Positions 5,401 to 49,190 of a DNA stretch of 64,000 bases are shown here, in pieces. Each line of letters starts with the position of its first letter. Positions within the stretch are counted from its first letter, which is position 1. Below the pieces are notes generated by a model. The model was not told the DNA's origin and searched no databases. It was given only the letters and a program-made list of their open reading frames with translations. This stretch comes from Candidatus Omnitrophota bacterium (lineage in GTDB: Bacteria > Omnitrophota > Gorgyraeia > Gygaellales > Profunditerraquicolaceae): contig JAKLGJ010000001.1 of NCBI GenBank assembly GCA_022710715.1, positions 426,041-490,040 of the forward strand, given 5' to 3'. The position numbers and the translations under genes are program-made.

Positions 5401-8079
5401 CGGGTGCTTGAAGACGGGCTGGTGATCTACGACGGAGCCGTCATTGCGGAGCTCATGGTGTTGCTCGGCAATATGGGCATGGCGGATAAGTTCATCACGG
5501 TACTCTGGGAAAATTCCCTGCCCGGGTATCAGAGGATTGTCGGCGGATACAACGCAGGTTCCGCCGGACAGGAGTTTGTGTATGACCCGGCGGATCCGGC
5601 TTCGGTCAGCTCGTATGAAAAAGGACTGCGGGGCTGGCGCTTCAAGATCATCGATCAGTCCGGGATGTGGGAGAAAAACGGGGTCAAATGGCAGCAATGG
5701 CAGCCGATAGCCGGGGAGAACGCCTGGGTGACTATGGCGGCGATGCAGGTGTACCACAAGAAATACGGCGCTACCGTTAAGGCTGACGCTACGGAATTGA
5801 TGCTGGCCAAGGAACTCGCGCGGGTCGCCATCAAGATGCAGGCTGGCAACGGCGGGATCCGCATGGCGCCGATCGGGACCTGGAGCAGCCAGGAAGAGCC
5901 GGGAACCCCGGTTTCCGAGCAGGTGTGGTTATACAACGAGATCTCCACAGAAAACTGTATTTCCTGGTACGGCGCGTTCCGGATGCTCTTTCAGGTGACC
6001 GGAGATCAGCAGTACAAAACCGCGATGGATAAGCTCGAAGGATATTTTAAATCGGTTTACGATCCGGCGACCGGGACAGTGGCCCAGGGCATGCATTATA
6101 ACGGCAACAGCTGGGAGAAAAACGCGCCTTTCGCTACGGATTGCCAGACCTGGCTTATCGCTTCTCTGGGCGTTTCCAAGGTCGACGCGATGTTCGGCGA
6201 GGGCGCTTCGTACAAAATGTGGCAGAAAACCCGGGAGACCGCGGGCGTATTCGATCAGAGAGGCAATCTGCTGGGCGTTGATTTTACCGATTTCCGGCAA
6301 GTGGGCCGGCCGGCGATGGTGAGCGTCGAATGGACTGCCGGCGCGATTACCGCAGCCAGGGAAATGAAAGCCGCGTATGGCGCCGCGTATCCTGACCGGG
6401 CGCAGTCATTGCAGAAAGATATCGATAGCATGCGCGCGCATGTAGAGACGCTTAAGATCGTGCGCAACGGGGTTACCGCGTATGCGTATTCCTCGGCCTA
6501 CGGCGAAACCGGTCACGGCTGGCGCGCGGCAGGAAGAATGCCCAGCTCCGCTTCCACCGGATGGATGGCCATGGTGGACGCGAACGGGGGCGAGGGGTTC
6601 GATCCGTTCTTCCTGGGCGGCAAAAGCGAGGCTGCCGGCGTACCGGCAACTCCCGGCGCTACGACCGCTCCCGGCGCGCAACCGACCAAGACTCCGGGAT
6701 TCAGCGCTGTTGCGGCAATTGCCGCGGCGCTGGGAGTGAGCAGCCTGTTCGCTGCATTTCGCAAGAAACAGGCCGCGAAGCTGGAAATCAAAAGCGAGGA
6801 TGACGGCAGTAATGACGGTGGCTTAAGCTCAACTGACAAACAGGCGATCAATGCTTTATACAAAAAAATGAAAATTACTTATTTGACTCAGAGGCTCGAT
6901 CCGGCTTATGAAAAAGGTTTGAGGATTTCTGCTATTGGAGAATTACATGAATTTGGCTATACCGGAGAGGCTTTAAGGCGGTTGTTGACCACCGAGCATG
7001 ATCGTGACGTGCTGTGGAATGTACTCGTTGCATTGGAAGACAGTGATGTGCAGGGGCAGGAGATAAACGCTGCGGCTGTCCGGTTGATACGAATGGATCG
7101 GTATCGCATGATCAGTGATGGAGCTGCAAGTTTCCTGTTGAGAACGACAAGCGGAGAATTGGTGCTCATTGACCTGATCGACGAACTGGATATACAGACA
7201 AGGGAGGTTCTGTTGGATTATTTGAGTCGAAATAAAAAAAGTTCAACGACTCTGTATAAGACTTTGAAGTTACGCATATATGAACCACTTCTAAAAGATA
7301 CGAAGAGGTCCGTAAAAAGACGGATCGAGGCGGTAAGAAAACTTTCCAATTTAGATTCTTCATTGTATCCGTTGTATTCGTTCAAGGAGATTATTCAGAA
7401 TCCGGATGAAGACCGGGATGTGATTATTGAAACAGCCAAATCTTTGCAAGGTCGCATTCCGGATCGGGAGTTATTCGTTCCTCTGCTGCGATTGATCCGG
7501 ACAGGGGACTCTAGGGTTGTTGAAAAAGCCGCCGCGCTATTGCTTCACTTAGGTGGAGGCATCAAGGTTCTGGAAGCGGAATTTGACCAGGGCAATCTGC
7601 CCGAGACGGCTCTGCGACCTTTGGTCGGCACCATCAAAACTTATTTTGGTGAGGATCTGGGTGACGGCGGCACTCTGGTGCAGAATCTCTTGAGCAGGAT
7701 GAAGCAGTTGATGCAACAGCAGGCAGCCGGAACGCCGGCAGCAGCGGATCCGGTGGGTGGTATCGATATGCGCATGATGCCCATGCAGCAGCCGGGCGTG
7801 AATCCGGCGATGGGCGCAGGCGCGGCCGCGGCCGCAGCGATCAATCCGGTGTCTTTGCGGGAGCTGGATGCGCAGTGGCAGGCGATCGTGGAGCAGGTAA
7901 ATCAGGGCGCGGTGCCCTGCAAACAATTGCAGGCGTATATGGCGGCCTGCGCGACTAATCCGCAAGCGCAGGATCAGCGTAAACAGGCCGAACAGTATCT
8001 GGCCTGGGTGCTGCGCCTGGAAGAAGACGCGGGTGTGAGCGTTTCCAGCGAGATGAAAGCAGCGTTCTGCGGCGCTTAA
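2470..8079 (+). CDS. Giant (1869 aa) multi-domain secreted membrane protein: signal peptide, about 1400-aa extracytoplasmic part, Pro/Ala-rich linker, one TM helix, about 440-aa C-terminal tail
   Basis: RBS AAAGGGGG precedes the ATG. The N-terminal signal peptide is IIALVIISCFVFEQSGFA. The only internal hydrophobic helix is FSAVAAIAAALGVSSLFAAF, near nt 6697-6765, followed by RKKQ. The C-terminal region is helical-repeat-like and Q/M/P/A-rich. The central region has motifs suggestive of an (alpha/alpha)6 glycosidase-like fold; this is an unverified inference. Confidence 0.75.
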   Translation: MERSIVRRIIALVIISCFVFEQSGFAQVAPQLPVPTYLQGLQPLDKFRPMHLRSMAFDPAQTRFSLLLDQGDNLRPSTRAVTDATAKVMEYFQIGLRLPNNSFWVNLRPDSSQRVIDPDLERTDLGKVFLEADLQLKKDLAQFTAPATPAGKMYWKKLYARAESLFGQEDVTIPTMTRPWIIPGEIIIKQQGTSAYVYKATMRVMLEQDYISSRDGAQTPAALATAAAIADPRMKELNAYSTQLIKDLVLPRLNREVNASRRYAGLRQAFYSLVLAQWFKTRIASAQVGESEKTEHGYAQMKRLIDSRDLTGLISKQPCPTQDYYRQYRKSFEQGEYKKEEALSTPHGMVIRRYTSGGIFGAVQPQTAGVAAETDVLAVDPVTNGIGYDPATGAIDINPEGLINGQQAEPQLKAQGPETPDGGSLSRELDSILNKDYLKRSKILMLRKVHKLSDQKIVEFVQSYYRLRLGQTIERLKPSDARTIADVLVRQGFSQYKAQLRSLQKEVRALERPSAASRRVGAPGNGARAARVLMAMGLVATAAGVGSIVNQELADGQGISDLAFIQDQLITLMPDAAQDLLTYSPFAASAAMIDTSTVPYGGPSVGWASEVEPVTMPADVNDKYLNVVVKANGQGKVRFQLLDKNIVDGTEAGLSDYIDVQEGENKIAIPLSVYQGKGVNTAEAREIVMHDGKNFWNQRDVNDPGFSAQFDSYEFSPDPIVQESFIDAIIKFFSNLFSFKISLFAVSAANLDTSVGLDGAWDVPISSGKGWGGAESGVSRTGDAVTVEDSRSQNWASFAVDLGGVDVSSKEVLRLKITGTGGEKIAIRVIDGAKDYTSSRGAQRITLKPGENEYTIDLQNFGSDLTKVEQVAFNLGKEGWGGQLNEKAVKITISSVKFDMKVAQVVAAQPQKTRAPAAPTAAVTAAPTPAPAAAYEKYSAEAAAAFFDSTVEAKTGLPASFQPTAEDLAAIHDPDEKRVLEDGLVIYDGAVIAELMVLLGNMGMADKFITVLWENSLPGYQRIVGGYNAGSAGQEFVYDPADPASVSSYEKGLRGWRFKIIDQSGMWEKNGVKWQQWQPIAGENAWVTMAAMQVYHKKYGATVKADATELMLAKELARVAIKMQAGNGGIRMAPIGTWSSQEEPGTPVSEQVWLYNEISTENCISWYGAFRMLFQVTGDQQYKTAMDKLEGYFKSVYDPATGTVAQGMHYNGNSWEKNAPFATDCQTWLIASLGVSKVDAMFGEGASYKMWQKTRETAGVFDQRGNLLGVDFTDFRQVGRPAMVSVEWTAGAITAAREMKAAYGAAYPDRAQSLQKDIDSMRAHVETLKIVRNGVTAYAYSSAYGETGHGWRAAGRMPSSASTGWMAMVDANGGEGFDPFFLGGKSEAAGVPATPGATTAPGAQPTKTPGFSAVAAIAAALGVSSLFAAFRKKQAAKLEIKSEDDGSNDGGLSSTDKQAINALYKKMKITYLTQRLDPAYEKGLRISAIGELHEFGYTGEALRRLLTTEHDRDVLWNVLVALEDSDVQGQEINAAAVRLIRMDRYRMISDGAASFLLRTTSGELVLIDLIDELDIQTREVLLDYLSRNKKSSTTLYKTLKLRIYEPLLKDTKRSVKRRIEAVRKLSNLDSSLYPLYSFKEIIQNPDEDRDVIIETAKSLQGRIPDRELFVPLLRLIRTGDSRVVEKAAALLLHLGGGIKVLEAEFDQGNLPETALRPLVGTIKTYFGEDLGDGGTLVQNLLSRMKQLMQQQAAGTPAAADPVGGIDMRMMPMQQPGVNPAMGAGAAAAAAINPVSLRELDAQWQAIVEQVNQGAVPCKQLQAYMAACATNPQAQDQRKQAEQYLAWVLRLEEDAGVSVSSEMKAAFCGA

Positions 8080-33431: not shown

Positions 33432-33460
33432 TTGACAAAGCGAGATAATGAGTATATACT
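33432..33460 (+). promoter_or_regulatory. Consensus promoter TTGACA-N17-TATACT overlapping a 12-bp palindrome GAGTATATACTC
   Basis: Exact -35 and a near-consensus -10 with a 17-nt spacer. The perfect palindrome at 33451-33462 spans the -10 and is a possible operator. Confidence 0.55.
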
Positions 33461-33525
33461 CATTATTAATTATTAAGTCCCGGGAGGGTTTTATGGATGA
33501 TCGTCAGTTTGCCCATAAGAAAATA

Positions 33526-33978
33526 ATGGCCCGTCGTGGCCGCCCTATAAAGAAGCGCATGGTTGTCGGCAGCCCCAGAATAAGCCTGTTCAGCCCCAGG
33601 GGCAGGCCCGGCAGGCCGGATTATGTGCTTTTGGGGGTAGATCAATTAGAGGCTTTGAGGCTTGCGGATTACCAGGGAAAAGACCAGAAATCCGCGGCCC
33701 AGTCCATGAGAATATCCCAGCAGACCTTTAGTCGTATCCTTAAAAAGGCGCGCCAGGCCGTGTCGGATGCCATTGTTAACGGCAAAATTATCCATATCCA
33801 GGGAGGCGCGATTGTTCAGGAAATGGAGCCGAAGTCATTAAGGGAGTTCGTGGAAATCAAGCAGGGCGCACGCAATCAGCCGCAGAAAAGTAAACCCGCC
33901 AAAGAATACGAGCATCCGCAGTTAATCAAAGAGAACCCGTATCAGTTTGATTTCTGGAAAGAAGCACCAGGTAAATAG
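33526..33978 (+). CDS. DUF134/UPF0251 family predicted DNA-binding protein
   Basis: The N-terminus MARRGRPIKKRMVVGSPRISLFSPRG matches the MxRxxRxxK.R.V...P....F.P.G signature of DUF134, and a sigma-70 region-4-like HTH follows. The start was moved from 33448. Confidence 0.5.
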   Translation: MARRGRPIKKRMVVGSPRISLFSPRGRPGRPDYVLLGVDQLEALRLADYQGKDQKSAAQSMRISQQTFSRILKKARQAVSDAIVNGKIIHIQGGAIVQEMEPKSLREFVEIKQGARNQPQKSKPAKEYEHPQLIKENPYQFDFWKEAPGK

Positions 33979-34366: not shown

Positions 34367-34597
34367 TTAATGCAGTTCTTGAGAGGATTGAATTTCCACC
34401 CCGGTGGTCTTAAGGAAATTCAGGGTTTTATTCAGCTCTTCTTTGTTGCCTTCCAGGATGACTACCGCCCATCCGGTATCCGTGGAAAATGAGGCTTCCA
34501 GGATGCTCATGGTTACCAGGAATTCTTTACAGAGGTTGCACAGGATGGGATCATCTTTGAGTTTGCCCGGGAAGGTCAGTTCGGCTCTTATTTTCAT
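34367..34597 (-). CDS. Small ferredoxin-fold/NIL-like protein (hypothetical, 76 aa)
   Basis: Last gene of the tightly overlapping minus-strand operon. Weak resemblance to the NIL/ACT-like fold. Confidence 0.35.
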   Translation of the reverse strand: MKIRAELTFPGKLKDDPILCNLCKEFLVTMSILEASFSTDTGWAVVILEGNKEELNKTLNFLKTTGVEIQSSQELH

Positions 34598-35072
34598 GTT
34601 TGAAGAGGGTTATGGCTGCTAGAACAGCCAGGTACATGAGTAAACCAAAGCCTATTGCCAGGACGAGATACCCCAGTAAAACCGGCAGGATTAATTTCAG
34701 GATTGTGGGGTCTAAAAGGTGTGCCCAGTGGAAGTTTCGTACGATTTCTTGCCAGTTGGATTGGACTTCCTGCCATTGCAAATGCATTATAGCAGATCCG
34801 ACTTTGATTGACAAGAGAATTGTCAGAAAAGACAGCCAGGTGTTGGTGAGTAACCCTCCCAGAAAAGCCGCGGCTTTATTCACCCGGAATGCGGCTGCCA
34901 GCAGCAATGCGGCCAGAGGTCCGGTTCCCGGCAGAATACCCAGGAACGCGCCCAGGCCGAAGCCAATGGCGATGCGCTGCGGGGAATCGTTCATCCGGAT
35001 CAGGCGCAGGTACAGGGCTTTGAAAAAGCGGATCAGCCTATTTTGAATTGCTTTCTTGGTTTCTTTCTTCAT
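34551..35072 (-). CDS. DUF2062 family membrane protein
   Basis: IAIGFGLGAFLGILPGTGPLAALLLAAAF is typical of DUF2062. It overlaps both neighbouring genes. Confidence 0.5.
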   Translation of the reverse strand: MKKETKKAIQNRLIRFFKALYLRLIRMNDSPQRIAIGFGLGAFLGILPGTGPLAALLLAAAFRVNKAAAFLGGLLTNTWLSFLTILLSIKVGSAIMHLQWQEVQSNWQEIVRNFHWAHLLDPTILKLILPVLLGYLVLAIGFGLLMYLAVLAAITLFKHENKSRTDLPGQTQR

Positions 35073-36600
35073 CCTGGAGCATTCTTTTGAGTATCTTGCC
35101 GGTTGAATTCTTTGGCAGTATGTCGCGCACTTCGATCAGTTTGGGGATTTTGTAGGCCGCCAGGTGTTCGCGCAGGAAGTGCGTCAGTTCATGGGAAGCG
35201 ACTTGTTCGCCTTCTTTGAGGACCACGAATCCTTTGGGCACTTCTCCCTTGTGTTCATCGGCAATACCGATCACCGCCGCTTCTTTGACCTTGGGGTGCC
35301 GGTAAAGGACCTCTTCGATTTCCCGCGGATAGACATTCAGGCCGCGCACATTGATCATTTCTTTCTTGCGGCCGGCAATATAGACATAGCCGTCTTTATC
35401 GAACCGGGCCATATCCCCGGTGTACAGCCAGCCGTTCTTGAGCGTTTCCCGGTTGGCGTCCAGCTGCTGGTAATATCCCCGCATTACGTTGGGGCCCCGG
35501 ACCAGCAATTCACCGATTTTGCCGGTTTCCACATCGCGCCCTTTTTCATCCACGATACGCAGGTCAATGCGTCCGGAGAGACGTTTGCCTATGGATCCGG
35601 GTTTACGCGTTCCATTGACCGGGTTCAGGGTGACTACCGGCGAAGCTTCGGTCAGGCCGTACCCTTCGATCAGCGGGATGCGGAATTTTTTCTCGAATCC
35701 TTGCAGCGTTTCTACCGGCAGCGCCGCGGCTCCGGAAACGCAGAGTTTAACGGGATTGAAAAGTTTGATCAGCGGGCTGTGAAATATGCGGGGCAGCTTG
35801 ATGTTCTTGAACACGGTGTAGATCGAAGGAATTCCCACAAAGATGGAAACCCGGTTGTTGCGTATGGCCCGGACCACCCGTTTAAAGGGTTTCAGCGATT
35901 TCATGATCACTATTCTGGCGCCGATGAATAACGGCAGGTTCATGCATACGGTTGCGGCAAAAGAATGAAATAACGGCAGTATGCAGATAAACGTGTCCCG
36001 GGGCAGTATGCGTAAGGCTTGTGAGCAGTCAACGGTATTGGCGATCAGGTTGTAATGCGTCAGCATTGCGCCTTTGGGATGTCCGGTAGTGCCTGAAGTG
36101 TACAGGAGCACGGCGATATCATCCCAGCTGGGCGCTACTTTTTCCAGAACGTCGACGCGCGCGCGTTTGATGCGTTGCAGGTCCGGCATCCTGTCTTTGA
36201 TCCGGGTGGTGGTGATGATATGCTTGAGGCTTTCCACGCGCATGAGCAGCTCTTCGGCCATTTCCAGATTCAACCGCGAAGTGATCAGGAACTCGGCTTC
36301 GCTGTTTTCCAGAATGTATCTGGCTTCGTCCATCTTGAACATGTAATTGATCGGAACGATAATGCCGCCGGCTTTGGCAATGGCGTAATAGCTGATCACG
36401 AATTCGGGACAGTTGTCCAGCAGTACTGCCACCGTATCGCCTTTTGAAATACCCATGCGCACTAATCCGGCAGCGATCTGATCGGTGGTCTCATCAAGGG
36501 TTTTGTAGGTGATCTTCTTGCGGCCGAAAATGATCGCGGTACGTTGCGGGAAACGTTTTGCGCTGGCGGTAAGGAGTTCTCCCAGATTATGCGGGTTCAT
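35038..36600 (-). CDS. AMP-dependent synthetase/ligase (long-chain fatty acid--CoA ligase-like)
   Basis: AMP-binding motif LYTSGTTGHPKGAML, and YGLTE, GDMARFDKDGYVYIAGRKKE and PKNSTGKILKR motifs. Confidence 0.8.
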   Translation of the reverse strand: MNPHNLGELLTASAKRFPQRTAIIFGRKKITYKTLDETTDQIAAGLVRMGISKGDTVAVLLDNCPEFVISYYAIAKAGGIIVPINYMFKMDEARYILENSEAEFLITSRLNLEMAEELLMRVESLKHIITTTRIKDRMPDLQRIKRARVDVLEKVAPSWDDIAVLLYTSGTTGHPKGAMLTHYNLIANTVDCSQALRILPRDTFICILPLFHSFAATVCMNLPLFIGARIVIMKSLKPFKRVVRAIRNNRVSIFVGIPSIYTVFKNIKLPRIFHSPLIKLFNPVKLCVSGAAALPVETLQGFEKKFRIPLIEGYGLTEASPVVTLNPVNGTRKPGSIGKRLSGRIDLRIVDEKGRDVETGKIGELLVRGPNVMRGYYQQLDANRETLKNGWLYTGDMARFDKDGYVYIAGRKKEMINVRGLNVYPREIEEVLYRHPKVKEAAVIGIADEHKGEVPKGFVVLKEGEQVASHELTHFLREHLAAYKIPKLIEVRDILPKNSTGKILKRMLQDEERNQESNSK

Positions 36601-37577
36601 GTACCCTCGGATTCTTTTTTGAATACGGATTTTATATGCACTCCGGCCAGACTTTCCAGCCCTCCGGCTTCCTGTATCCAGCCGTTGCCCAGTCCGTATT
36701 CTTCCATGATCTGCTGCGCTTTTTCGTATTCCTGCAGGGAAATCCTGCGATTAATTTCCGGATACTCTGCGGCTTTATAGTATGGCGTGTACTGGCTCAT
36801 CAGGCTGACGTAGGTTTCGGTGGACAGCTCTTGAGCGATGAATCGCATTATGGTCTCCGTGCCGGATGCTCCGCCCGGCAGCACCAGGTGGCGAATGATC
36901 AAACCGCGTTCGATGATGCCGTTGAGGTCGAAAACGGCTGTTCCGACCTGTCGGAACATCTCTTTGACTGCCGCCTGGTTGTATGCGGGATAGTCGGGAG
37001 CCAGGGAATATTTTCGGGACATGGCGCTGTCCCCGTAGCGCATATCCGGCAGGTAGATATCGATGATGCCATCGAGCATCCGGATCCGTTCTGCCAGCTC
37101 ATAACCGCTGGTGTTGTAAACCAGAGGAATGTTGAGCCCCCCGGGAATGGCCAGGAGCAGGGCATTCAGGATCTGGGGCAGGACATGGGTCGGGGTAACG
37201 AAATTGAGGTTATGGCAGCCTCTCCCCTGCAATTCCAGCATTATATCGGCCAATTCAGACGGGGTAAGTTCTTTTGAGCCTCCCCCCTTCTGGCTAAACT
37301 CGAAATTCTGGCAATAGTGACAGGCCATAGTGCAGTGCGAGAAGAATATCGTGCCTGAACCGCGGCTGCCGGATACCGGCGGCTCCTCTCCTTGATGGCA
37401 TAAATAACTGTAAACCGAGGCTTTATCCGTAGTTTTGCAGAAGCTTTTTTGTCCTTTTAACCGGTTGATTTTGCATTCTCTGGGGCAGAGTCGGCAGGAT
37501 TCCAGCATGGCTGTGGCTTGTCGGGCGATCCGGGCCAGTTGTCCGCTGGCATACGTTTCAAGATAGCGTGGAGTCAT
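36597..37577 (-). CDS. Radical SAM enzyme, AmmeMemoRadiSam-system (AmrS)/PflA-like family
   Basis: N-terminal CRLCPRECKI..C Cys cluster, then GSGTIFFSHCTMACHYCQNFEFS, which carries the CX3CX2C motif, and GGEP-like and glycine-rich motifs. Confidence 0.65.
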   Translation of the reverse strand: MTPRYLETYASGQLARIARQATAMLESCRLCPRECKINRLKGQKSFCKTTDKASVYSYLCHQGEEPPVSGSRGSGTIFFSHCTMACHYCQNFEFSQKGGGSKELTPSELADIMLELQGRGCHNLNFVTPTHVLPQILNALLLAIPGGLNIPLVYNTSGYELAERIRMLDGIIDIYLPDMRYGDSAMSRKYSLAPDYPAYNQAAVKEMFRQVGTAVFDLNGIIERGLIIRHLVLPGGASGTETIMRFIAQELSTETYVSLMSQYTPYYKAAEYPEINRRISLQEYEKAQQIMEEYGLGNGWIQEAGGLESLAGVHIKSVFKKESEGT

Positions 37578-38341
37578 CGTTTCCGCATTTCCTCTTCCAC
37601 TTGCGCGATACGTTGTTTGGTCGGAGGATGCGAACTCAAGAAAACCGGCGGCGCGCTGCGGCCTTTTTGAGCGGCATCAGTTTCAAGTTTGTGGAAAAAA
37701 GTCACGATCCCCAGCGGGCTGTATCCGGCGCGTCTGGTGTAACGAACGGCCAGCTTATCCGCCAGCAGTTCATCTTTGCGGCTGTAACCGAGATTGGCCA
37801 GATCAAAGACTACGCTCAACGCTTGAGATACCGGCAGTTGTCCGCTGGCGCCGGTCACGATACCCATCAATAACTGGAATCCCATCAGGCCCTGTAATTG
37901 TTTGACGCTATGCCGGGCGGCGATATGACCGATCTCGTGCGCGATCACTCCGGCCAGTTCCGCGTCATTGGCGGTTTGCGCCAGGCCGCTGTGAATATAC
38001 ACGTATCCGCCGGGTACGGCGAAGGCGTTCAGGGTTTTATCTTCAACTACCTGGAAGACGTAGTGCAGGTCCTGCCGGTCGGAATACCGGGCAACCCGTT
38101 GGCCGATGTTCCTGACCCGCGCCAGTTGCGCCGGATCGGTGGCGAACTTCATTTTCTTGTGCAGCTCGGCGTCCAGTTCTTTGCCCAGGGCGACTTCTGC
38201 CGCGGTATCCATGAACAGCGTCTCCCGGCGTTCGGTGGCCGGATTGTACACCGTAACGCATCCGCAGAGCGTCAGGCACGCGGTAAGCGCGATCAGCACG
38301 CCCAAGAGACCGGCGTTATTTCTGTTTGATCTGTAAAGCAT
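37574..38341 (-). CDS. M48 family zinc metallopeptidase, lipoprotein
   Basis: HEIGHIAARH (HExxH), and a lipobox LTACLTLCGC after start MLYRSNRNNAGLLGVLIAL. The start was moved in from 38530. Confidence 0.7.
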   Translation of the reverse strand: MLYRSNRNNAGLLGVLIALTACLTLCGCVTVYNPATERRETLFMDTAAEVALGKELDAELHKKMKFATDPAQLARVRNIGQRVARYSDRQDLHYVFQVVEDKTLNAFAVPGGYVYIHSGLAQTANDAELAGVIAHEIGHIAARHSVKQLQGLMGFQLLMGIVTGASGQLPVSQALSVVFDLANLGYSRKDELLADKLAVRYTRRAGYSPLGIVTFFHKLETDAAQKGRSAPPVFLSSHPPTKQRIAQVEEEMRKR

Positions 38342-38843
38342 AGAGTTCCCGTATGCGGTTGAATATCCGGATATACTCTTGCGTTTGATAATCCGGATAG
38401 GTCCAGGTCCAGGGATGGAAACTTTTATCCTGGTAGTGCAGGGTGATCTCGGCGAAGATGCCTTTGTTGAGATGGATACGGTGAACGTAATCTTTCGTGG
38501 AAGCCAGCACCAGCTTGGCCAGGTCGACATAGCCCGGGTCGATGTTCACGGTGCGGTTGCGGCCTTCGCAAAAGGAGCTTTCGATCCTGTTGGTGATGAT
38601 TTTGATCTCGGAGAGTTTCTGGGAAGGGATGAGTTTTTTGAAGCTGACAAACGCGCGTTGGAGCGCAGCGCCGAATTCTTTCTCGTAATAGTGGGTCAGC
38701 GTGAACGGCAGGATGGCGCTTTCGTAATCGATTTCTCCAAATCGGCGGACGAGTTGTTGTCTGGCTCGCAGATAGAGCGTTTCTTGCTTGAAGATAAAAC
38801 CTGCGATCAGTTTAACAGGATCGGCTTTTTGTATGATTCCCAT
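38316..38843 (-). CDS. DUF4416 family protein (hypothetical)
   Basis: MGIIQKADPVKLIAGFIF..YYEKEFG resembles DUF4416. It overlaps the M48 start by 26 nt. Confidence 0.4.
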   Translation of the reverse strand: MGIIQKADPVKLIAGFIFKQETLYLRARQQLVRRFGEIDYESAILPFTLTHYYEKEFGAALQRAFVSFKKLIPSQKLSEIKIITNRIESSFCEGRNRTVNIDPGYVDLAKLVLASTKDYVHRIHLNKGIFAEITLHYQDKSFHPWTWTYPDYQTQEYIRIFNRIRELYALQIKQK

Positions 38844-38891
38844 TGTTCCAGTAAGCAGCTCGGGATGCCGTTGCTACTTCCCGGGGAGAAT

Positions 38892-39248
38892 TTATGGTAA
38901 GAATTGATTAATATATTCGGCGATCCTGACTTTAGGCATTTCTTTGATACGGTTGAAAAAAATAGCCACGTTGAATCCGCCGCTGGCAGCGTCTTCGGTC
39001 CTGACGATCACGCCTTCGCACTCCACTTCCTTGTCGTTGCGTAATCCCCGTTCCTGTATGGGAAGGTTCATTTTGATTTTGACCCGGGTAAACGGGGGGA
39101 CGTATTTGTCGATATGACAATATGCGCCCAGCGCGCTGACGTTCTGGGTGTTGCTCACGAAATCATAGCCGTTGGCGATGACGTTGATGGGCACCTGTTT
39201 GTTGATTCTGGGTGATATGCGTCTTTCTTTGAAATCGCGTTTTATCAT
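38892..39248 (-). CDS. PilZ domain protein (c-di-GMP binding)
   Basis: RRISPRINKQ (RxxxR) and NVSALGAYC (D/NxSxxG), 118 aa. The start ATG overlaps the stop of the zinc-ribbon ORF (ATGA). Confidence 0.6.
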   Translation of the reverse strand: MIKRDFKERRISPRINKQVPINVIANGYDFVSNTQNVSALGAYCHIDKYVPPFTRVKIKMNLPIQERGLRNDKEVECEGVIVRTEDAASGGFNVAIFFNRIKEMPKVRIAEYINQFLP

Positions 39249-39415
39249 TTCTGCTCACCTTCCTGCGGCTTGGATTTCGTGGCTTTAATCCAGCACTTTC
39301 TGGTGCAATATAACTTACCGTTACGATAATACCGTCTTAATTTCTTAAGGGGCTTTCCGCAGCCCAGACAGTTCGTTTGTTTTTCTTCGGTTGGTGCCTT
39401 CTGTTCGTCAGCCAT
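39245..39415 (-). CDS. Unannotated small zinc-ribbon protein (56 aa, CxxCGK...YCxxKC; YacG/TRASH-like)
   Basis: Translation: MADEQKAPTEEKQTNCLGCGKPLKKLRRYYRNGKLYCTRKCWIKATKSKPQEGEQK. GGAG lies upstream. It sits between the two PilZ genes with 6-nt and overlapping junctions. It is absent from the ORF track because it is shorter than 60 aa. Confidence 0.4.
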   Translation of the reverse strand: MADEQKAPTEEKQTNCLGCGKPLKKLRRYYRNGKLYCTRKCWIKATKSKPQEGEQK

Positions 39416-39421
39416 GGTGCG

Positions 39422-39772
39422 TTACGCTCCTTGTTCTTGATGGGTTTTCATAGTGATATATTCCGAAAGGAATTTCTTTTCATTGTCGTCGAATTCAATG
39501 AAAGAAATGCCTGTTTTGAACCTGTCTGAATGTGAGACGGGTGAAGTCCAGACTACTTTTCCGATGGGCCGCAGTACCTTGGACAACAGCTTGATTTCCA
39601 TGGTTAACTGCGTCTGTGGAGGCATGTATCGACTGTTGAGAAACGCGAGACCCCCGAGACTTATGTCTTCCAACAACGTGTAGTTGTAATCGGACACGCC
39701 TCGAGTTCGGTAGTGCAGCGGTTCTTTCAGCTTGACCCTTGGGAAAAGCCGTTGGTCTGATTTGTTATTCAT
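39422..39772 (-). CDS. PilZ domain protein (c-di-GMP binding)
   Basis: RLFPRVKLKE (RxxxR) and DISLGGLAF (DxSxGG), 116 aa. Confidence 0.6.
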   Translation of the reverse strand: MNNKSDQRLFPRVKLKEPLHYRTRGVSDYNYTLLEDISLGGLAFLNSRYMPPQTQLTMEIKLLSKVLRPIGKVVWTSPVSHSDRFKTGISFIEFDDNEKKFLSEYITMKTHQEQGA

Positions 39773-39811
39773 AGTTAATTGTAAAGACCGTGGCTTTGTT
39801 GTAATACATAA

Positions 39812-39839
39812 AGTATAACATAAATTTTATGTATGTCAA
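39812..39839 (-). promoter_or_regulatory. Promoter TTGACA-N16-TATACT (minus strand) for the PilZ-led operon
   Basis: Reverse complement of TGTCAA at 39834-39839 and of AGTATA at 39812-39817. This gives a 5' UTR of about 30 nt to ATG 39772. Confidence 0.45.
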
Positions 39840-39929
39840 TAGACAAGCCGGTCGGCTTTTTTCTCTGTTTACCGTCGCAGTCACGGGTATGCGGGGCACT
39901 GCGATGAGAGCACGTTTTGCTCCGCAGCG

Positions 39930-42688: not shown

Positions 42689-42919
42689 TTTCTCCTCCCC
42701 AGAGAATACTTACCGGGATCAGGCAATAGACCGGGCTAAAAGGCGGCATGCTATAGCCTCTTTTACCGTTGCTGGGCAGCGCCTGGAATCAAACCAGGAC
42801 TTCCTTTGCTTGTCCGGTGAGTGAACAAAAAACCCTTGACCTCTTCCATATGAGAAGTCAAGGGTAACCCCTATTTTACCCTTGGTCCGGCGCCAGGTGT
42901 GGTGTTCGATCGTGTACGC

Positions 42920-43122
42920 GTAAAGGCAGGTATTCTGACTTCCCTGCGGCTTGAACAGAACCTTCCCGGTTACCCAGTGGTTGTGTCCGTCCTGGTGTTT
43001 ACAGACGTGAGTTCAGCCTCTGACTCTGAAAGAAGCGATTCCAGAGTGCAGGGTTACAGCAGCGGGACTGTGGCCGAATTCCCCTCGTGCTCAAGGAGTT
43101 CACGGCCTTCCCTTGCCTACAA
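42920..43122 (-). promoter_or_regulatory. Cobalamin (AdoCbl) riboswitch, minus strand
   Basis: On the minus strand: AGGGAAGGCCGUGAACUCC...CCCGCUGCUGUAACC...CCACUGGGUAACCGGGAAGG...AAGUCAGAAUACCUGCC. These match GGGAA, GUGaAAnuCC, CCCGCnnCUGUAA, the B12 box and AGUCAG-A-ACCUGCC. It lies about 230 nt upstream of the TBDR start. Confidence 0.8.
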
Positions 43123-43125
43123 CGT

Positions 43126-43632
43126 TCATTTCTTCGAAAGAACGGAAGCTAATTTGCCGTCGCGGGTCAATTTTGCGATCAGCTCGTATGTGCCGAATAA
43201 AGCGAAACTATATATCACGGTCGCCGCGGTAAAATCGCGCAGGAACGGCAGCGCCATGACGTAGCAGTCGACCAGACCCTGCGCAGTACGGGGATACCAT
43301 CCCATCAGCCATACGCCGAAGTTCGTGATGACGTAGAACAACAGCGATGAGGCTAAAGACAAAGCGGCAATGCGGCCGGCTGAAGGTTTTTGTTTCATGC
43401 GGTAACCCAAAAGCGCGATGAGCGCGAAGCTGCCCCAGGTAAACAGTACGGTGTTGTGCAGGCCGAGTATGACGTCGCTTGCGATCATCAACAGTAAAGG
43501 CACGAAGAACGATTGTTTCTTATTTAAATACGCTCCGCCGAATAAAGCGATGGCGGCGACAGGAGCGAAATTCGGTGCGTGGGGAACAAAGCGTAAAAGT
43601 ACGCCGATAAGAATCAAGCTCAATGCTAACAT
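43126..43632 (-). CDS. Small polytopic membrane protein, possibly a vitamin/corrinoid transporter S-component-like
   Basis: 168 aa with 5-6 TM helices, between cobO and the B12 riboswitch. No diagnostic motif, so the call rests on context. Confidence 0.35.
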   Translation of the reverse strand: MLALSLILIGVLLRFVPHAPNFAPVAAIALFGGAYLNKKQSFFVPLLLMIASDVILGLHNTVLFTWGSFALIALLGYRMKQKPSAGRIAALSLASSLLFYVITNFGVWLMGWYPRTAQGLVDCYVMALPFLRDFTAATVIYSFALFGTYELIAKLTRDGKLASVLSKK

Positions 43633-44360: not shown

Positions 44361-45002
44361 TTAGTGCTGGAGGCCGAATTTGCCTATCAGCGGAACGAAT
44401 ACGCAGCTGGTAAAGCTCTCGCCGCGCAATTGCCCGTGGTCCTTATGGAAAACGGTCAGTGTCTGGCTGAATAGTTCTCCGATCGGTGCGACGATCAATC
44501 CGTCATCGGTAAGCTGTTTCGACAGCGGGTCCGGAACTTCGGCGGTTGCCGCGGTAATGATGATGCGGTCAAATGGCGCTTGCTCCGGCCAGCCCAGCGT
44601 CCCGTCGCCGACCTTGAATGAAATGTTTTTATAGCCCATCTCCCGCAGCAGCCGGTGCGCGGGTTCTGCCAGCAGCGCGTGGCGTTCGATAGTGTAAACT
44701 TCTTTTGCCAGCTCCGCCAGGATCGCCGACTGGTATCCGGATCCGGTGCCGATCTCCAGGATCCTCTCCGTGCCCCGCAACTGCAGGCATTCGGTCATCA
44801 GCGCTACCATATACGGTTGCGAGATCGTTTGTTTCTCGCCTATCGGTAAAGGATAATCCCCGTAGGCTTTTTCCCGCGCTTCTGCCGGCACGAACCGATG
44901 TCTCTCTACTTTCAGGAATGTCTGCAGCACCCGTTTGTCCTGAATTCCTCGCGGGATCAGCTGTTCCTCTACCATTTGTTTCCGTAGCGCCGGGTAGTCC
45001 AT
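44361..45002 (-). CDS. pcm: Protein-L-isoaspartate O-methyltransferase
   Basis: SAM motif VLEIGTGSGYQSAIL, plus TISQPYMVA. Length is 213 aa. Confidence 0.85.
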   Translation of the reverse strand: MDYPALRKQMVEEQLIPRGIQDKRVLQTFLKVERHRFVPAEAREKAYGDYPLPIGEKQTISQPYMVALMTECLQLRGTERILEIGTGSGYQSAILAELAKEVYTIERHALLAEPAHRLLREMGYKNISFKVGDGTLGWPEQAPFDRIIITAATAEVPDPLSKQLTDDGLIVAPIGELFSQTLTVFHKDHGQLRGESFTSCVFVPLIGKFGLQH

Positions 45003-45017
45003 GATGAGCCAGAGATA

Positions 45018-45683
45018 CTAACGGGATTTTTTATACCGCCGCACGAATTTGAAGAAACGAATAGTGTCGCTGATCGGATTGATATGGCTGTTTTCGCTTC
45101 TGTAGATCGTTTTGACCGGGACCGAATGAATGACAAAACCGAGCTTGGCGGTTTCAAACAATATTTCCGATTCGGTTTCGAATTTACGCGTGCTCAATTT
45201 TGTTTTCTGGAGCACTTCCTTCTTGATCAGGCGGAATCCGCACTGTGAATCAGGAATGCGCTGTTTGCATATTTTGGAGATCATCCAGGACATAAAGGTG
45301 TTGGTGATGACGCGTACCATCGGCATGTTCCTGACTGCCGCCATCCGGTTGCCGATGACGATGCCGTAACGGGGTTCTGCCGCGGCTTGCAAAAAAGCCG
45401 GAATGTCGGAAGGCAGGTGTTGTCCGTCGGCATCCATGGTGATCACAGCGTCAAAACCGTTGCGCATGGCGTATTCGAATCCTTTGATCAGGGTTGCGCC
45501 TTTGCCCAGGTTCCTCCCGTTGCTCAAGACGGCGGCGTCGGTTTTTCGGGCGACTCCGAGAGAATTGTCGGTTGAACCGTCATCAATGACCACGACCGGC
45601 AGGTTGAACCGGCGGATTTGATGGATCAGTTCTTCAAGGGTTTGTTCTTCATTGTGCGATGGGAGAATAACGCAGATTTTCAT
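45018..45683 (-). CDS. Family 2 glycosyltransferase (dolichyl/polyprenyl-phosphate sugar transferase-like)
   Basis: ICVILPSHNEE..VVVIDDGSTDNS..DADGQH. The start was moved to MKICV, which overlaps the upstream stop by 4 nt. Confidence 0.75.
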   Translation of the reverse strand: MKICVILPSHNEEQTLEELIHQIRRFNLPVVVIDDGSTDNSLGVARKTDAAVLSNGRNLGKGATLIKGFEYAMRNGFDAVITMDADGQHLPSDIPAFLQAAAEPRYGIVIGNRMAAVRNMPMVRVITNTFMSWMISKICKQRIPDSQCGFRLIKKEVLQKTKLSTRKFETESEILFETAKLGFVIHSVPVKTIYRSENSHINPISDTIRFFKFVRRYKKSR

Positions 45684-46528
45684 TCGATCCAGAATTTTTT
45701 GAACATGAACCATTGGTCCGGGTAGGCGCGGATGTAGTTTTCGATGATTTTTTTGTAGTTATTGATCACTTCTTCGATCGATTGCTGACGGTCGACTTCC
45801 ACCGTTCTCTCAAACCGCAAAGTAAAGGTGTCGTCGGAATTGCGGACCATGAATCCCGGCACGATCGCCGCCCCGGTTTTAAGCGCCAGCACCGCCGGTC
45901 CTTTGGGCAGGTACGTGGCTTTCCCGAAAAAAGTGATCACTTCTCCGCCGTCGTTGCTGAAATCGCGGTCGCCCACCAGCGCGAGCATCTGGTTCTCCAG
46001 CAGGATCTTGAAGCATGTCCGGGCAGCTTTGCCGAAGGGGATCACCTGGATCCCTTTTTTCTCCCTCCGGGAATTAAAAAACGCGTTGATCTCTTCGGAT
46101 TTGTGCGGCAGGGCCACTGCCCATAAAGGATAATCCATCTGCGCGATCACCGCCCCTCCCAGTTCCCAGTTGCCGATATGCGCGGTTAACAGGATCACGC
46201 CTTTTTTCTTCTGTATGGCTTCGTTGACGAACTCGATATTTTCCACCCGCACATTTTTTTCAATAAAGGCTTTATTCATCAGCGGGAAGCGGAAGAAATC
46301 GACCAGGTATTTCGCGAAATTCCGGAACATCTTCAGCCGGATCGCGCGCAATTCTTTGTCGGATTTGTCCGGGAAGATCGTTTTTAAATTCGCCCAGGTG
46401 TCCGCGCGGTCCTTGTCGGCAAAGATGAAATGCACGTCCGAGAAGAATGTCGCGACCGCATAACACAACTTAAGCGGCAGGCTTAACGCGATGGATTGGC
46501 CGATCTTGAATAACGAATAGCTGTACAT
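45680..46528 (-). CDS. Lysophospholipid/lipid A-type acyltransferase (LpxL/HtrB family)
   Basis: Its length and motifs resemble the LABLAT family (HIGNWEL..). Neighbouring glycolipid genes support the context. Confidence 0.6.
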   Translation of the reverse strand: MYSYSLFKIGQSIALSLPLKLCYAVATFFSDVHFIFADKDRADTWANLKTIFPDKSDKELRAIRLKMFRNFAKYLVDFFRFPLMNKAFIEKNVRVENIEFVNEAIQKKKGVILLTAHIGNWELGGAVIAQMDYPLWAVALPHKSEEINAFFNSRREKKGIQVIPFGKAARTCFKILLENQMLALVGDRDFSNDGGEVITFFGKATYLPKGPAVLALKTGAAIVPGFMVRNSDDTFTLRFERTVEVDRQQSIEEVINNYKKIIENYIRAYPDQWFMFKKFWIE

Positions 46529-46534
46529 GTCGGA

Positions 46535-47656
46535 CTAAGCTACCTCCAGTATCAGTTTGGCGATATCCATGCTGGCATTGGGCTTGCTCAACGCGCCGGC
46601 GCATTCGGACAGCTGCGAAATTTTATGGGGATGTTCGAAGAGGTCCTGCACGACCAGGTCGATATGCCGCGGATGGTCGATTTTGATCGCAGCGTTCTTC
46701 TCGGTCAGGTAAACGGTATTGCTGGCTTCCTGTCCGGGGATCGGCTTGATGATCAACATGGGCAGTTTCTTGGAAAGCGCTTCCGACGTGGTGATCCCGC
46801 CGGGTTTGGTGACGATCAGCTGGGAGATCGTCATCAGCTCGTTGATATTGTCGACGTATTTGAGCAAGACGATCTTCTTGCCGTATTTCTTGATTTTCTT
46901 TTGCAAAGACGAGTAGAGCTTTTTGTTTACGCCGCAGACGATGATTTCCTGGAAATCCATCTCCACTTTTTCCAGCGCTTTGACGATGGATTTGATCGGA
47001 CCCAGCCCCTGCCCCCCGCCCATCAGCAGCATGGTCGGCACGCGAGGGTCAAGTCCCAGGGAGGCGTACACTTTGTGCCTGTCTACCGGGGCGTTGAATT
47101 TGAAATCGAACGGTATGCCCAGCGGTTTGATCTTTTCCGGCGGCACTCCTTTGAGCATCAACCGGTGGCCGATTTCCTCCGACGGAACGACGTAAAAGTC
47201 GACATTGTCATAAATCCAGTAGGAGTGCGGTACGTAGTCCGTCAGGACCGCGATCAGCGGGAAATGGGCGTTATACATCTTCTTGTAATCCGCCACCATC
47301 CCGCACGGGAATGCCTGGGTGCAGATGACCGCGTCCGGATGGAATTTCCCGAACAGCCGCTGGAATTTCTTGGAATTCATCTTATGTATGGCGTCCTTGA
47401 TCTTTTCCAGCCGCTCCTTGACCGTGGGATTGTCGTAGATCAGGTCCCAGATCATCGGGGTGCGTTTGATCACCGTAGTATAAATCTGGTTGACGACTTT
47501 TTCCGAAATGGGATTGGTATATCTGAAAGCGTTGATATTGAGCGTTTCTATATTCGAAGAAAGCGTGTGCAGCGCTTTCTCGATCGCCAGCGTCGCGCTG
47601 TGATGGCCGGATACCTCCGAAATATACATGAGGACGACGTTTTTTTTCTTGAGCAT
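46535..47656 (-). CDS. MGDG-synthase-like diacylglycerol glycosyltransferase (GT28)
   Basis: An N-terminal MGDG_synth-like region (SEVSGHHSATLAIEKAL) and a C-terminal GT28 domain (KPGGITTSEAL..P.L.IKPIPGQE). Confidence 0.65.
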   Translation of the reverse strand: MLKKKNVVLMYISEVSGHHSATLAIEKALHTLSSNIETLNINAFRYTNPISEKVVNQIYTTVIKRTPMIWDLIYDNPTVKERLEKIKDAIHKMNSKKFQRLFGKFHPDAVICTQAFPCGMVADYKKMYNAHFPLIAVLTDYVPHSYWIYDNVDFYVVPSEEIGHRLMLKGVPPEKIKPLGIPFDFKFNAPVDRHKVYASLGLDPRVPTMLLMGGGQGLGPIKSIVKALEKVEMDFQEIIVCGVNKKLYSSLQKKIKKYGKKIVLLKYVDNINELMTISQLIVTKPGGITTSEALSKKLPMLIIKPIPGQEASNTVYLTEKNAAIKIDHPRHIDLVVQDLFEHPHKISQLSECAGALSKPNASMDIAKLILEVA

Positions 47657-47657
47657 G

Positions 47658-48821
47658 CTACAATTTCCCTTCGCGGTACAATTCCACCATGGCTACGGCA
47701 ACATCCGGATGGAACTGCTTGCCGGCTAGTTTCTCGATCTCGTCCATCGCTTTTTCCTGGGGCAGCCCTTTACGATAGGGCCGGTCCGAGACCATGGCGT
47801 CGTAGGAATCGGCTACCGCGATTATCGCGGCGATCAGCGGGATCTGGGCGCCTTTGAGGCCTTCGGGATACCCGGTTCCGTCGTAGCGTTCGTGATGGTA
47901 TTTTACCCCTTTAACGCAGTTTTCCAGTTCCTGGATCGATTCCAGGATCTTTTCGCCGATGACCGTGTGCTCTTTCATCGTATTCCATTCTTCCGGGCTC
48001 AACGGTCCCTGTTTGTTCAGAATACTCTCCGGAATGCCGATCTTGCCGATATCGTGCAGCACGCTGGCGATTTCCAGGTCTTCGGAAAAAGCGTCGTCTA
48101 TCAGGTCGGGGTATTTCTGACTGAGTTTATCGCTGACTTTCTGGCTGACTTCGCGCACCCGGTCGGTATGGCCGCCGGTATAATTGTCTTTGGCGTCGAT
48201 CGCCGCAGCCAGGGCTTTGGTGATGTTCTTGAACAGGGCTTTTCTCTTGTCCAGTTCGTCGGTAAGATCTTTGAAAAGCTTGGCGTTGCGGATGGCCATG
48301 CCGACATCCGAAGCCAGCGCCACGAAGAATTGCATTTCGTCTGCTTCGAATTCGGTTCCGTCCTTCTTGGAGCCTAAGAGCAGGATGCCCAGCAGGTCAT
48401 GCTGGAAATAGCACGGCACGCAGGCAACCGCATCGAATATCTCCATCTGATAGAGTGCGCCGCGCAGCAGGTCGCTGTTCTCATTCTTCACCAGGATATC
48501 CAGGATCTTCTTGGCTTTAGGATAAACGATAGTGTTGTCGCTTGAGAAAAGGGTGGCTTTTTCCTCGCTGAATATCCTGATCAGGGCATTATCATTATCC
48601 ATCCGGGTGAAGCCTTCCGGAACTTTCAATCCCAGCGGGCCGCGGGATACTTTCATGATATAGGAATCGGCGATGTGGTTGTGCAGGAGGATATTGGCGT
48701 GGCTGACTTTGACCTTCTGGACGAGCATGCGCACGATCATCTTGATCAGGGTGTCAGGCTCATGCACCAGGATCATCGTCTTGGAGGCTTTTTCGAGTTC
48801 TTTCTTGTAATCTATGGACAT
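47658..48821 (-). CDS. GAF-domain HD-GYP phosphodiesterase (c-di-GMP hydrolase family)
   Basis: HDIGKIGIP and HHERYDGTGYP motifs. Confidence 0.75.
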   Translation of the reverse strand: MSIDYKKELEKASKTMILVHEPDTLIKMIVRMLVQKVKVSHANILLHNHIADSYIMKVSRGPLGLKVPEGFTRMDNDNALIRIFSEEKATLFSSDNTIVYPKAKKILDILVKNENSDLLRGALYQMEIFDAVACVPCYFQHDLLGILLLGSKKDGTEFEADEMQFFVALASDVGMAIRNAKLFKDLTDELDKRKALFKNITKALAAAIDAKDNYTGGHTDRVREVSQKVSDKLSQKYPDLIDDAFSEDLEIASVLHDIGKIGIPESILNKQGPLSPEEWNTMKEHTVIGEKILESIQELENCVKGVKYHHERYDGTGYPEGLKGAQIPLIAAIIAVADSYDAMVSDRPYRKGLPQEKAMDEIEKLAGKQFHPDVAVAMVELYREGKL

Positions 48822-48824
48822 GGT

Positions 48825-49190
48825 TTAAGGATTGAGGGCTTTCATCACCACCTGTTCGAGCTCTTCGAGCTTTAACGGTTTGTGCACGTATCCGCAGGCG
48901 CCCAGTTGCACACAGGTGTTATAGGATTCGTTTTCTTCCGGCCGGGTGCCGGTGACCATCACCGCTTTGATCGTAGCATCCAGCTTTTTGATCGCTTCCA
49001 GGGTTTGGATCCCGTTCATCCCGCCCATGCGGATATCCAGCAGGACCAGGTCAGGGCGGTCTTCTTTGACTTTATTCAGCGCTTCTTCTCCGCTTCCTGC
49101 GGTGCGGGTGTCGATTTTTCGCTTGCGAAAGAAATTCGCGGCAAATTCCCGCACATCTTCCTCGTCGTCAACAATAAGCATTTTCGGCAT
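48825..49190 (-). CDS. Single-domain response regulator (CheY-like receiver)
   Basis: Contains the phospho-acceptor Asp (LVLLDIRMGGMNG) and a conserved Lys. Length is 121 aa. Confidence 0.8.
   Translation of the reverse strand: MPKMLIVDDEEDVREFAANFFRKRKIDTRTAGSGEEALNKVKEDRPDLVLLDIRMGGMNGIQTLEAIKKLDATIKAVMVTGTRPEENESYNTCVQLGACGYVHKPLKLEELEQVVMKALNP

Follow-up and report, generated by a model that had tools for sequence, protein, structure and literature searches.

Organization of the locus

The locus described here lies in a stretch of 64,000 nucleotides (nt), referred to as the window, from a Candidatus Omnitrophota bacterium (assembly GCA_022710715.1, contig JAKLGJ010000001.1, positions 426,041 to 490,040). 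It comprises nine open reading frames (ORFs), all on the minus strand and spanning window positions 39772 to 34367, which in the direction of reading encode a single-domain PilZ protein (PilZ1), a zinc-ribbon protein, a second PilZ protein (PilZ2), a DUF4416 protein, an M48 metalloprotease, a radical S-adenosylmethionine (SAM) enzyme, an acyl-CoA ligase, a DUF2062 membrane protein and a NIL-domain protein. An identical locus is found in the Candidatus Omnitrophota metagenome-assembled genome (MAG) GCA_035453765.1, and a JGI contig of 1.62 Mb carries it too. The nine minus-strand ORFs and their junctions had been reported in an original prediction for this DNA, and recomputation agreed with it exactly: the junctions measure, in order, 6, -4, 48, -26, -4, -4, -35 and -47 nt (negative values denote overlaps), and all three 4-nt overlaps have the sequence ATGA. 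The 26-nt overlap hinges on taking an internal ATG at 38341 as the start of the M48 gene, the protein being 255 amino acids (aa) long in the NCBI form and 243 aa in the JGI form. Eight family labels were also correct, namely those of the two PilZ proteins, the CxxC...CxxxC zinc ribbon, DUF4416, the M48 lipoprotein protease, the AMP-dependent ligase, DUF2062 and a small ferredoxin-fold protein, which is a NIL domain according to Pfam.

A sigma-70-type promoter-like site, TTGACA-N16-(TG)TATACT, was confirmed at 39839-39812 on the minus strand, with 11 of 12 positions matching and a TG preceding the -10 element. It is situated inside the 157-nt gap 3' of the upstream gene, and 40 nt separate the end of the -10 element from the first ATG. 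Since 15 such sites occur in 9.7 kb, compared with 8.8 ± 3.3 in shuffled sequences, the match alone is weak evidence and the argument for a promoter is its position. In many relatives the gene preceding PilZ1, encoding an ExeA-like ATPase, is divergent, which places the start of transcription at PilZ1 as a conserved feature. An intrinsic terminator was looked for 3' of the NIL gene and none was found. With a common strand, short or overlapping junctions, a promoter-like site upstream and no internal terminator, the nine co-oriented genes are a real unit, in line with the single unit with its own promoter that had been proposed, and they are probably expressed as one transcript.

A second strong promoter-like site, TTGTCA-17-(TG)TATAAT, was observed within the DUF2062 gene (34786-34814, minus strand, 11 of 12 positions), about 190 nt before the start of the NIL gene, which may have a promoter of its own at this predicted site. 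A GC hairpin with a T-run behind it at 39845-39858, just upstream of the cluster promoter, is terminator-like on the plus strand only, and no plus-strand gene ends there. The GC content was flat throughout the region.

A smaller cluster is conserved in one Omnitrophota clade

A search with a DUF4416 profile retrieved 80 genome and 80 metagenome loci, 160 non-redundant DUF4416 loci in all (cited below by L numbers), onto which the window proteins were mapped by tblastn. In 61 of the 160 the radical SAM gene was located downstream on the same strand, and these are termed related loci; all denominators refer to loci with enough sequence. PilZ2 was present in every related locus that could be scored (60 of 60), the zinc ribbon in 58 of 59, PilZ1 in 43 of 55 and DUF2062 in 30 of 34, whereas only a minority had the M48 gene (15/61), the acyl-CoA ligase gene (11/45) or the NIL gene (7/30). 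The conserved co-occurrence that had been put forward as a check on the original prediction was thus borne out for the zinc ribbon, PilZ2, DUF4416, the radical SAM enzyme and DUF2062, which occur in 88-100% of the related loci, and not for the other three families. Among the loci compared, the complete nine-gene set was confined to the window and to L047 and L145.

The conserved unit is accordingly (PilZ1)-zinc ribbon-PilZ2-DUF4416-PflX-type radical SAM enzyme-DUF2062, five or six genes that are kept together across one large Omnitrophota clade. The locus in the window is an elaborated copy of this smaller cluster, with the M48 protease, the FadD-type ligase and the NIL protein as optional inserts; the position of the ligase is occupied in other lineages by a BamD/YbgF-like lipoprotein or an AsmA-like protein. 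PilZ2 is usually encoded 10-50 nt 5' of DUF4416 in the related loci, and PilZ and DUF4416 are retained in L024 and L054/L156, where the radical SAM gene has been lost, so that zinc ribbon-PilZ2-DUF4416 is the tightest link in the cluster. The block also stays intact where its upstream context changes, from TonB genes (the window, L009, L012 and L155) to aroB/ExeA in most other loci.

The claim that no operon of these genes had been described agrees with the literature searched, which held nothing matching and no mention of DUF4416 or PF14385. Searches for COG1313/pflX/K04070, for DUF2062 and for Omnitrophota together with PilZ likewise returned nothing relevant to the cluster, apart from a remark on small pilZ genes that is cited below. 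A paper on DedA/Tmem41b considered as a lead for PF09835 was a false lead, the term being absent from its main text. What the cluster represents is a previously undescribed association, found throughout the clade, between PilZ receptors and families that are known yet uncharacterised, and not a demonstrated new mechanism.

The PilZ and zinc-ribbon proteins

PilZ1 (39422-39772, minus strand, 116 aa) and PilZ2 (38892-39248, minus strand, 118 aa) are single-domain proteins that match PF07238 with 37.6 and 30.2 bits, respectively (cutoff 22.5). The RxxxR and DxSxxG motifs of PilZ1 are conserved across 40 orthologues, and the RRxxPR and NxSxxG motifs of PilZ2 across 47. Because the RxxxR and [DN]xSxxG motifs for binding of cyclic di-GMP (c-di-GMP) are conserved in both proteins, gating of the module by c-di-GMP is plausible. 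The 56-aa protein encoded between them (39245-39415, minus strand) belongs to no family over threshold (at best LIM, E 0.0015); its four cysteines, arranged as CxxC...CxxxC, and a YYR motif are conserved across 39 orthologues.

PilZ proteins with intact motifs that are encoded together with membrane or envelope genes are also a feature of the PilZ-coupled envelope operons for cellulose (bcs) and alginate (alg44) and of YcgR-type effectors. Unlike in those systems, PilZ here takes the form of two free-standing small proteins with a zinc ribbon, which are neither fused to nor encoded beside a known synthase or motor, and their partners DUF4416, PflX and DUF2062 are families without known function.

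Small pilZ genes are common beside unrelated loci in Omnitrophota, and the phylum is reported to have giant genes with small pilZ genes after them (bioRxiv 10.1101/2023.11.21.568195). An ORF of 1869 aa is present at 2470-8079 on the plus strand of the window.

The radical SAM enzyme

The radical SAM enzyme (36597-37577, minus strand, 326 aa, PF04055 in Pfam) is probably of the PflX type (K04070). Its homologues, many of them at 60-69% identity, carry the JGI name 'putative pyruvate formate lyase activating enzyme', a family which we take to be K04070/COG1313 'PflX'. The CxxxCxxC motif and four N-terminal cysteines (C28, C31, C35 and C47) are invariant among the orthologues, an N-terminal CxxCPRxC...C motif and a length of about 320 aa being what would be expected of a PflX enzyme. 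An AlphaFold2 model of the enzyme (predicted local distance difference test score, pLDDT, 91.5) had as its best match the pyruvate formate-lyase activating enzyme (PFL-AE) of Escherichia coli (3c8f, E 9e-9, TM-score 0.71 on the target), and the top PDB matches 3c8f, 3cb8 and 8fo0 ranged from E 9e-9 to 2.5e-7.

The enzyme thus resembles PFL-AE in the GSGTIFF-x-CxxxCxYC cluster region and in the partial TIM-barrel fold of the model. It differs in the extra N-terminal four-cysteine motif and in a score of only 15.7 bits with the PFL-AE model TIGR02493 (cutoff 231.75), and no gene for a PFL-like or Gly_radical enzyme was found among the neighbours within 10 kb on either side of the cluster.

The label that did not survive was the assignment of this enzyme to the AmrS-like, AmmeMemoRadiSam family. 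AmrS is of about the same size, has N-terminal cysteines and likewise lacks a known substrate, but the enzyme of the locus scores 18.1 bits with TIGR04337 against a cutoff of 220, and neither AMMECR1 nor Memo is encoded among the nine proteins or the genes called within 10 kb on either side. A cluster for peptide maturation, i.e. for a ribosomally synthesised and post-translationally modified peptide (RiPP), was also considered and rejected: the enzyme matches Radical_SAM and Fer4_12 alone, without SPASM or RRE, and no precursor-like peptide gene was seen, the small ORFs of 56 and 76 aa being conserved folded domains (zinc ribbon and NIL) and not precursor peptides.

The DUF4416 protein and its contexts outside the clade

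The DUF4416 protein (38316-38843, minus strand, 175 aa, PF14385 with 204 bits) is cytoplasmic and belongs to a family of about 2400 clusters at 50% identity, nearly all of whose members occur as stand-alone proteins approximately 180 aa long. About 35 of its polar or aromatic positions remain unchanged from phylum to phylum, which suggests that DUF4416 is an enzyme. The AlphaFold2 model (pLDDT 78, poor at residues 116-132) has a ferredoxin-like alpha/beta fold, and its top PDB match is the pterin pyrophosphokinase HPPK, a weak match (E 2.6e-3, TM-score 0.43) at a level where PII and ribosomal proteins score similarly. Comparison of the DUF4416 profile by hhalign with an approximate sequence of E. 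coli FolK found no match, and a search of the DUF4416 and radical SAM sequences against PDB chains gave nothing usable.

Outside the Omnitrophota clade, DUF4416 is encoded between mnmG and rsmG (mnmE-mnmG-DUF4416-rsmG-parA; L046, L062), in the order surE-QueG-like-DUF4416-Ste24-type M48, in Poribacteria 5' of the gene for an S58 peptidase, 3' of radC, beside thiI (L086, L174), after mnmE-folE (L166/L167) and beside a QueG-like protein (L052, L058, L078, L083). Pooled neighbour counts revealed no single recurring partner of DUF4416 outside the clade.

DUF4416 is also found fused to a Ste24-type M48 protease (P0314), to AnmK, to an HldE-like cytidylyltransferase, so called from our reading of an NGCFDILHxGH motif in the sequence, and to a Ub-Mut7C domain. 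Fusion to or adjacency with Ste24-type M48 was seen at at least five loci in addition to fusion P0314. Taken together with the M48 protease of the present cluster, this means that M48 proteases of two different subtypes recur beside DUF4416. The 540-aa fusion P0314 of DUF4416 with a Ste24-type (CAAX) M48 protease looks genuine and occurs in two assemblies (L166, 8001-9623; L167, 7621-9243); its start is overlapped by 4 nt by a GTP cyclohydrolase I gene, which is itself preceded by mnmE. A 463-aa ORF in L047 that joins DUF4416 and M48 was not accepted as a true fusion, being probably a read-through of the spacer.

In Chloroflexota, DUF4416 lies 2-4 kb from a gene belonging to this radical SAM family at six loci (L085, L088, L090, L103, L170 and L174), a proximity that provides modest independent support for a link between the two families. 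In L170, from a Chloroflexota MAG, DUF4416 (2839-3375) and the PflX-type gene (6001-6942) are 2.6 kb apart in a folate one-carbon cluster with MTHFR, FTCD_C, FolD and FTHFS.

The DUF2062 protein and the optional members

The DUF2062 protein (34551-35072, minus strand, 173 aa, PF09835 with 85 bits) has hydrophobic segments at residues ~40-70, 80-100 and 120-160. It may be compared with TIGR03546, which together with TIGR03545 we take to form a pair of partner families, a DUF2062 protein and an AsmA-like protein. The match of the DUF2062 protein to TIGR03546 is weak (24.8 bits, cutoff 79), and so is the match to TIGR03545 (22.4 bits, cutoff 173) of the AsmA-like gene just upstream of DUF2062 in L016, L017 and L023. 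The window, in contrast to such a pair, has no AsmA-like gene.

The M48 zinc metalloprotease (37574-38341, minus strand, PF01435 with 125 bits) has a lipoprotein signal, and its HEIGH motif and lipobox cysteine are conserved among orthologues. It shares the M48 domain, the HExxH motif and the lipoprotein signal with BepA and LoiP. However, the protease of the locus lacks the TPR domain of BepA, reaches only 105 bits where the BepA cutoff is 570 and 81 bits where the LoiP cutoff is 365, and, unlike either of them, is an optional member of a cluster.

The AMP-forming acyl-CoA ligase (35038-36600, minus strand, 520 aa) contains AMP-binding and AMP-binding_C domains and falls in the NCBIfam subfamily NF004837 'long-chain-fatty-acid--CoA ligase' (510 bits, cutoff 476); the orthologues encoded in clusters of this kind are 63-70% identical. 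The last member, a stand-alone NIL-domain protein of 76 aa (34367-34597, minus strand), matches PF09383 with 50 bits (cutoff 24).

Proposed function and alternatives

To account for the conserved core we favour a c-di-GMP-responsive module that would be linked to the cell envelope, a tentative reading to which we assign a probability of roughly 0.4. The two small PilZ proteins would bind c-di-GMP, possibly joined by the zinc ribbon, and would relay the signal by direct contact to DUF4416 in the cytoplasm, their most constant neighbour. DUF4416 would in turn act together with the PFL-activase-like radical SAM enzyme and DUF2062 in the inner membrane, in a process that may target the envelope. 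This target is suggested by the lineage-specific inserts, which are envelope or lipid genes (the periplasmic or outer-membrane M48 protease, the BamD/YbgF-like and AsmA-like proteins and the fatty-acid-type CoA ligase), and by the partners to which DUF4416 is fused or adjacent elsewhere, i.e. Ste24-type M48, AnmK and the HldE-like domain.

Several observations weigh against the envelope-linked module, and many of them fit equally a mixed housekeeping operon, in which genome compaction and clade synteny would have brought together genes that do separate jobs and share no common pathway. Tight or overlapping junctions are typical of this genome, 24 of the 50 same-strand junctions in the window being ≤10 nt (crude gene call), so the packing of the locus is unexceptional. 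Genes within 6 kb upstream are nearly as conserved as the cluster itself (aroB 27/34, SH3 protein 25/34, ExeA-like 19/34); with such high background synteny across the clade, part of the conservation of the cluster may be inertia, and the association seems to have arisen once, in a single clade. In some lineages unrelated genes (nitroreductase, DUF362 or PMT_2 glycosyltransferase) are inserted in the middle of the cluster, between PilZ2 and DUF4416, and the M48, ligase, NIL and AsmA-like genes come and go in the same way. Outside the clade, where the DUF4416 proteins are about 50% identical, their neighbours are varied and unrelated housekeeping genes; in Chloroflexota the DUF4416 and radical SAM genes mostly converge on an intervening FecR-domain gene instead of being co-transcribed, and DUF4416 was absent from four of six contexts sampled from the radical SAM side. 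Small pilZ genes, moreover, are not peculiar to this cluster in Omnitrophota (bioRxiv 10.1101/2023.11.21.568195), and neither experimental nor literature support for any step of the preferred model was found in the literature searched. A mixed operon is for these reasons the main rival and a serious one, though we regard it as somewhat less likely on balance than the envelope-linked module: the zinc ribbon and PilZ2 are present in 34 of 34 loci as against 19-27 of 34 for the flanking genes, which makes the core steadier than its flanks, if not by a wide margin, the core relocates as a block to different contexts, and another phylum also has DUF4416 in the vicinity of this radical SAM family.

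The other explanations considered give the core genes, or some of them, a common task of a different kind. A role of the DUF4416-radical SAM pair in RNA modification or in pterin- or folate-type cofactor chemistry, with PilZ and DUF2062 as bystanders or regulators, would suit the HPPK fold match and the occurrence of DUF4416 next to mnmG/rsmG, mnmE-folE, thiI and QueG-like genes and, in L170, with MTHFR, FolD and FTHFS; it appears improbable, as the match is weak and other proteins of the same fold score similarly, the profile comparison with FolK was negative, and these neighbours are scattered single lineages with no folate gene recurring in the pooled counts. The original prediction envisaged that the operon could be a c-di-GMP-gated pathway modifying a lipid or peptide by radical SAM and adenylating chemistry, which is taken here as a pathway in which radical SAM enzyme, ligase and protease would have to act jointly. 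All three genes are indeed present and overlapping in the window, the full set returns in L047 and L145, and the cluster ligases are well conserved, but most loci have the core without ligase or protease, so that the combination of radical SAM and adenylating chemistry is not the conserved part; the radical SAM enzyme moreover has none of the accessory domains or precursor genes of a peptide pathway, and the AmrS label fails. Such a joint pathway is therefore quite unlikely. We give equally little credence to a narrower variant of the module, in which DUF4416 and the activase-like enzyme would constitute a two-protein radical system, the enzyme acting on DUF4416 itself, where the invariant N-[IL]-D-P-G-[YF] hairpin is one conceivable site, or on a substrate held by DUF4416, with PilZ and the zinc ribbon as a c-di-GMP switch and DUF2062 as the tie to the membrane. 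Nothing speaks for an anti-phage defence or mobile accessory island except that the locus encodes a radical SAM enzyme and signalling domains; PADLOC models gave no match to any of its proteins (0/9), the GC content does not deviate, and the locus is syntenic across many MAGs, which makes this explanation very improbable indeed.

If the core genes do cooperate, they offer a testable context for three orphan families, DUF4416, the PflX-type radical SAM enzymes and DUF2062, and would represent a new output of c-di-GMP signalling in Omnitrophota. To our knowledge, the PflX-type enzymes comprise thousands of members for none of which a substrate is known, and the phylum is without a cultured model organism. 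The two-protein radical system, were it true, would give the three families their first assigned role and c-di-GMP a new type of output. If the genes do not cooperate, the locus is another compact operon of unknown function, and the main value of the analysis is the correction of the AmrS label.

Genomic surroundings

Upstream of the cluster and on the same strand are encoded, in order, a response regulator, an HD-GYP phosphodiesterase, an MGDG-synthase-like glycosyltransferase, a lipid A acyltransferase, a GT2 glycosyltransferase, a methyltransferase, CobO and a DUF6580 protein, the run from the response regulator to the methyltransferase occupying approximately 44361-48843 on the minus strand. 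HD-GYP genes are thus found near the cluster in the window, and GAF/HD-GYP genes recur near the clusters of relatives (e.g. L034, L040 and L047), which speaks in favour of the c-di-GMP-responsive module. The CobO and DUF6580 genes are followed by a cobalamin riboswitch (RF00174, 47 bits, 42908-43135, minus strand) directly 5' of a gene for a TonB-dependent receptor (42688-40679), and then by a TonB-C-like gene (40607-39930). A terminator-like hairpin after the riboswitch (42865-42832, minus strand) could be its expression platform. At the other end, a DUF134 gene on the plus strand (33448-33978) converges on the end of the cluster, and an opposite-strand DUF134 homologue is located within a few kb downstream in many relatives (e.g. 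L009, L018, L023, L040, L144, L155 and L164).

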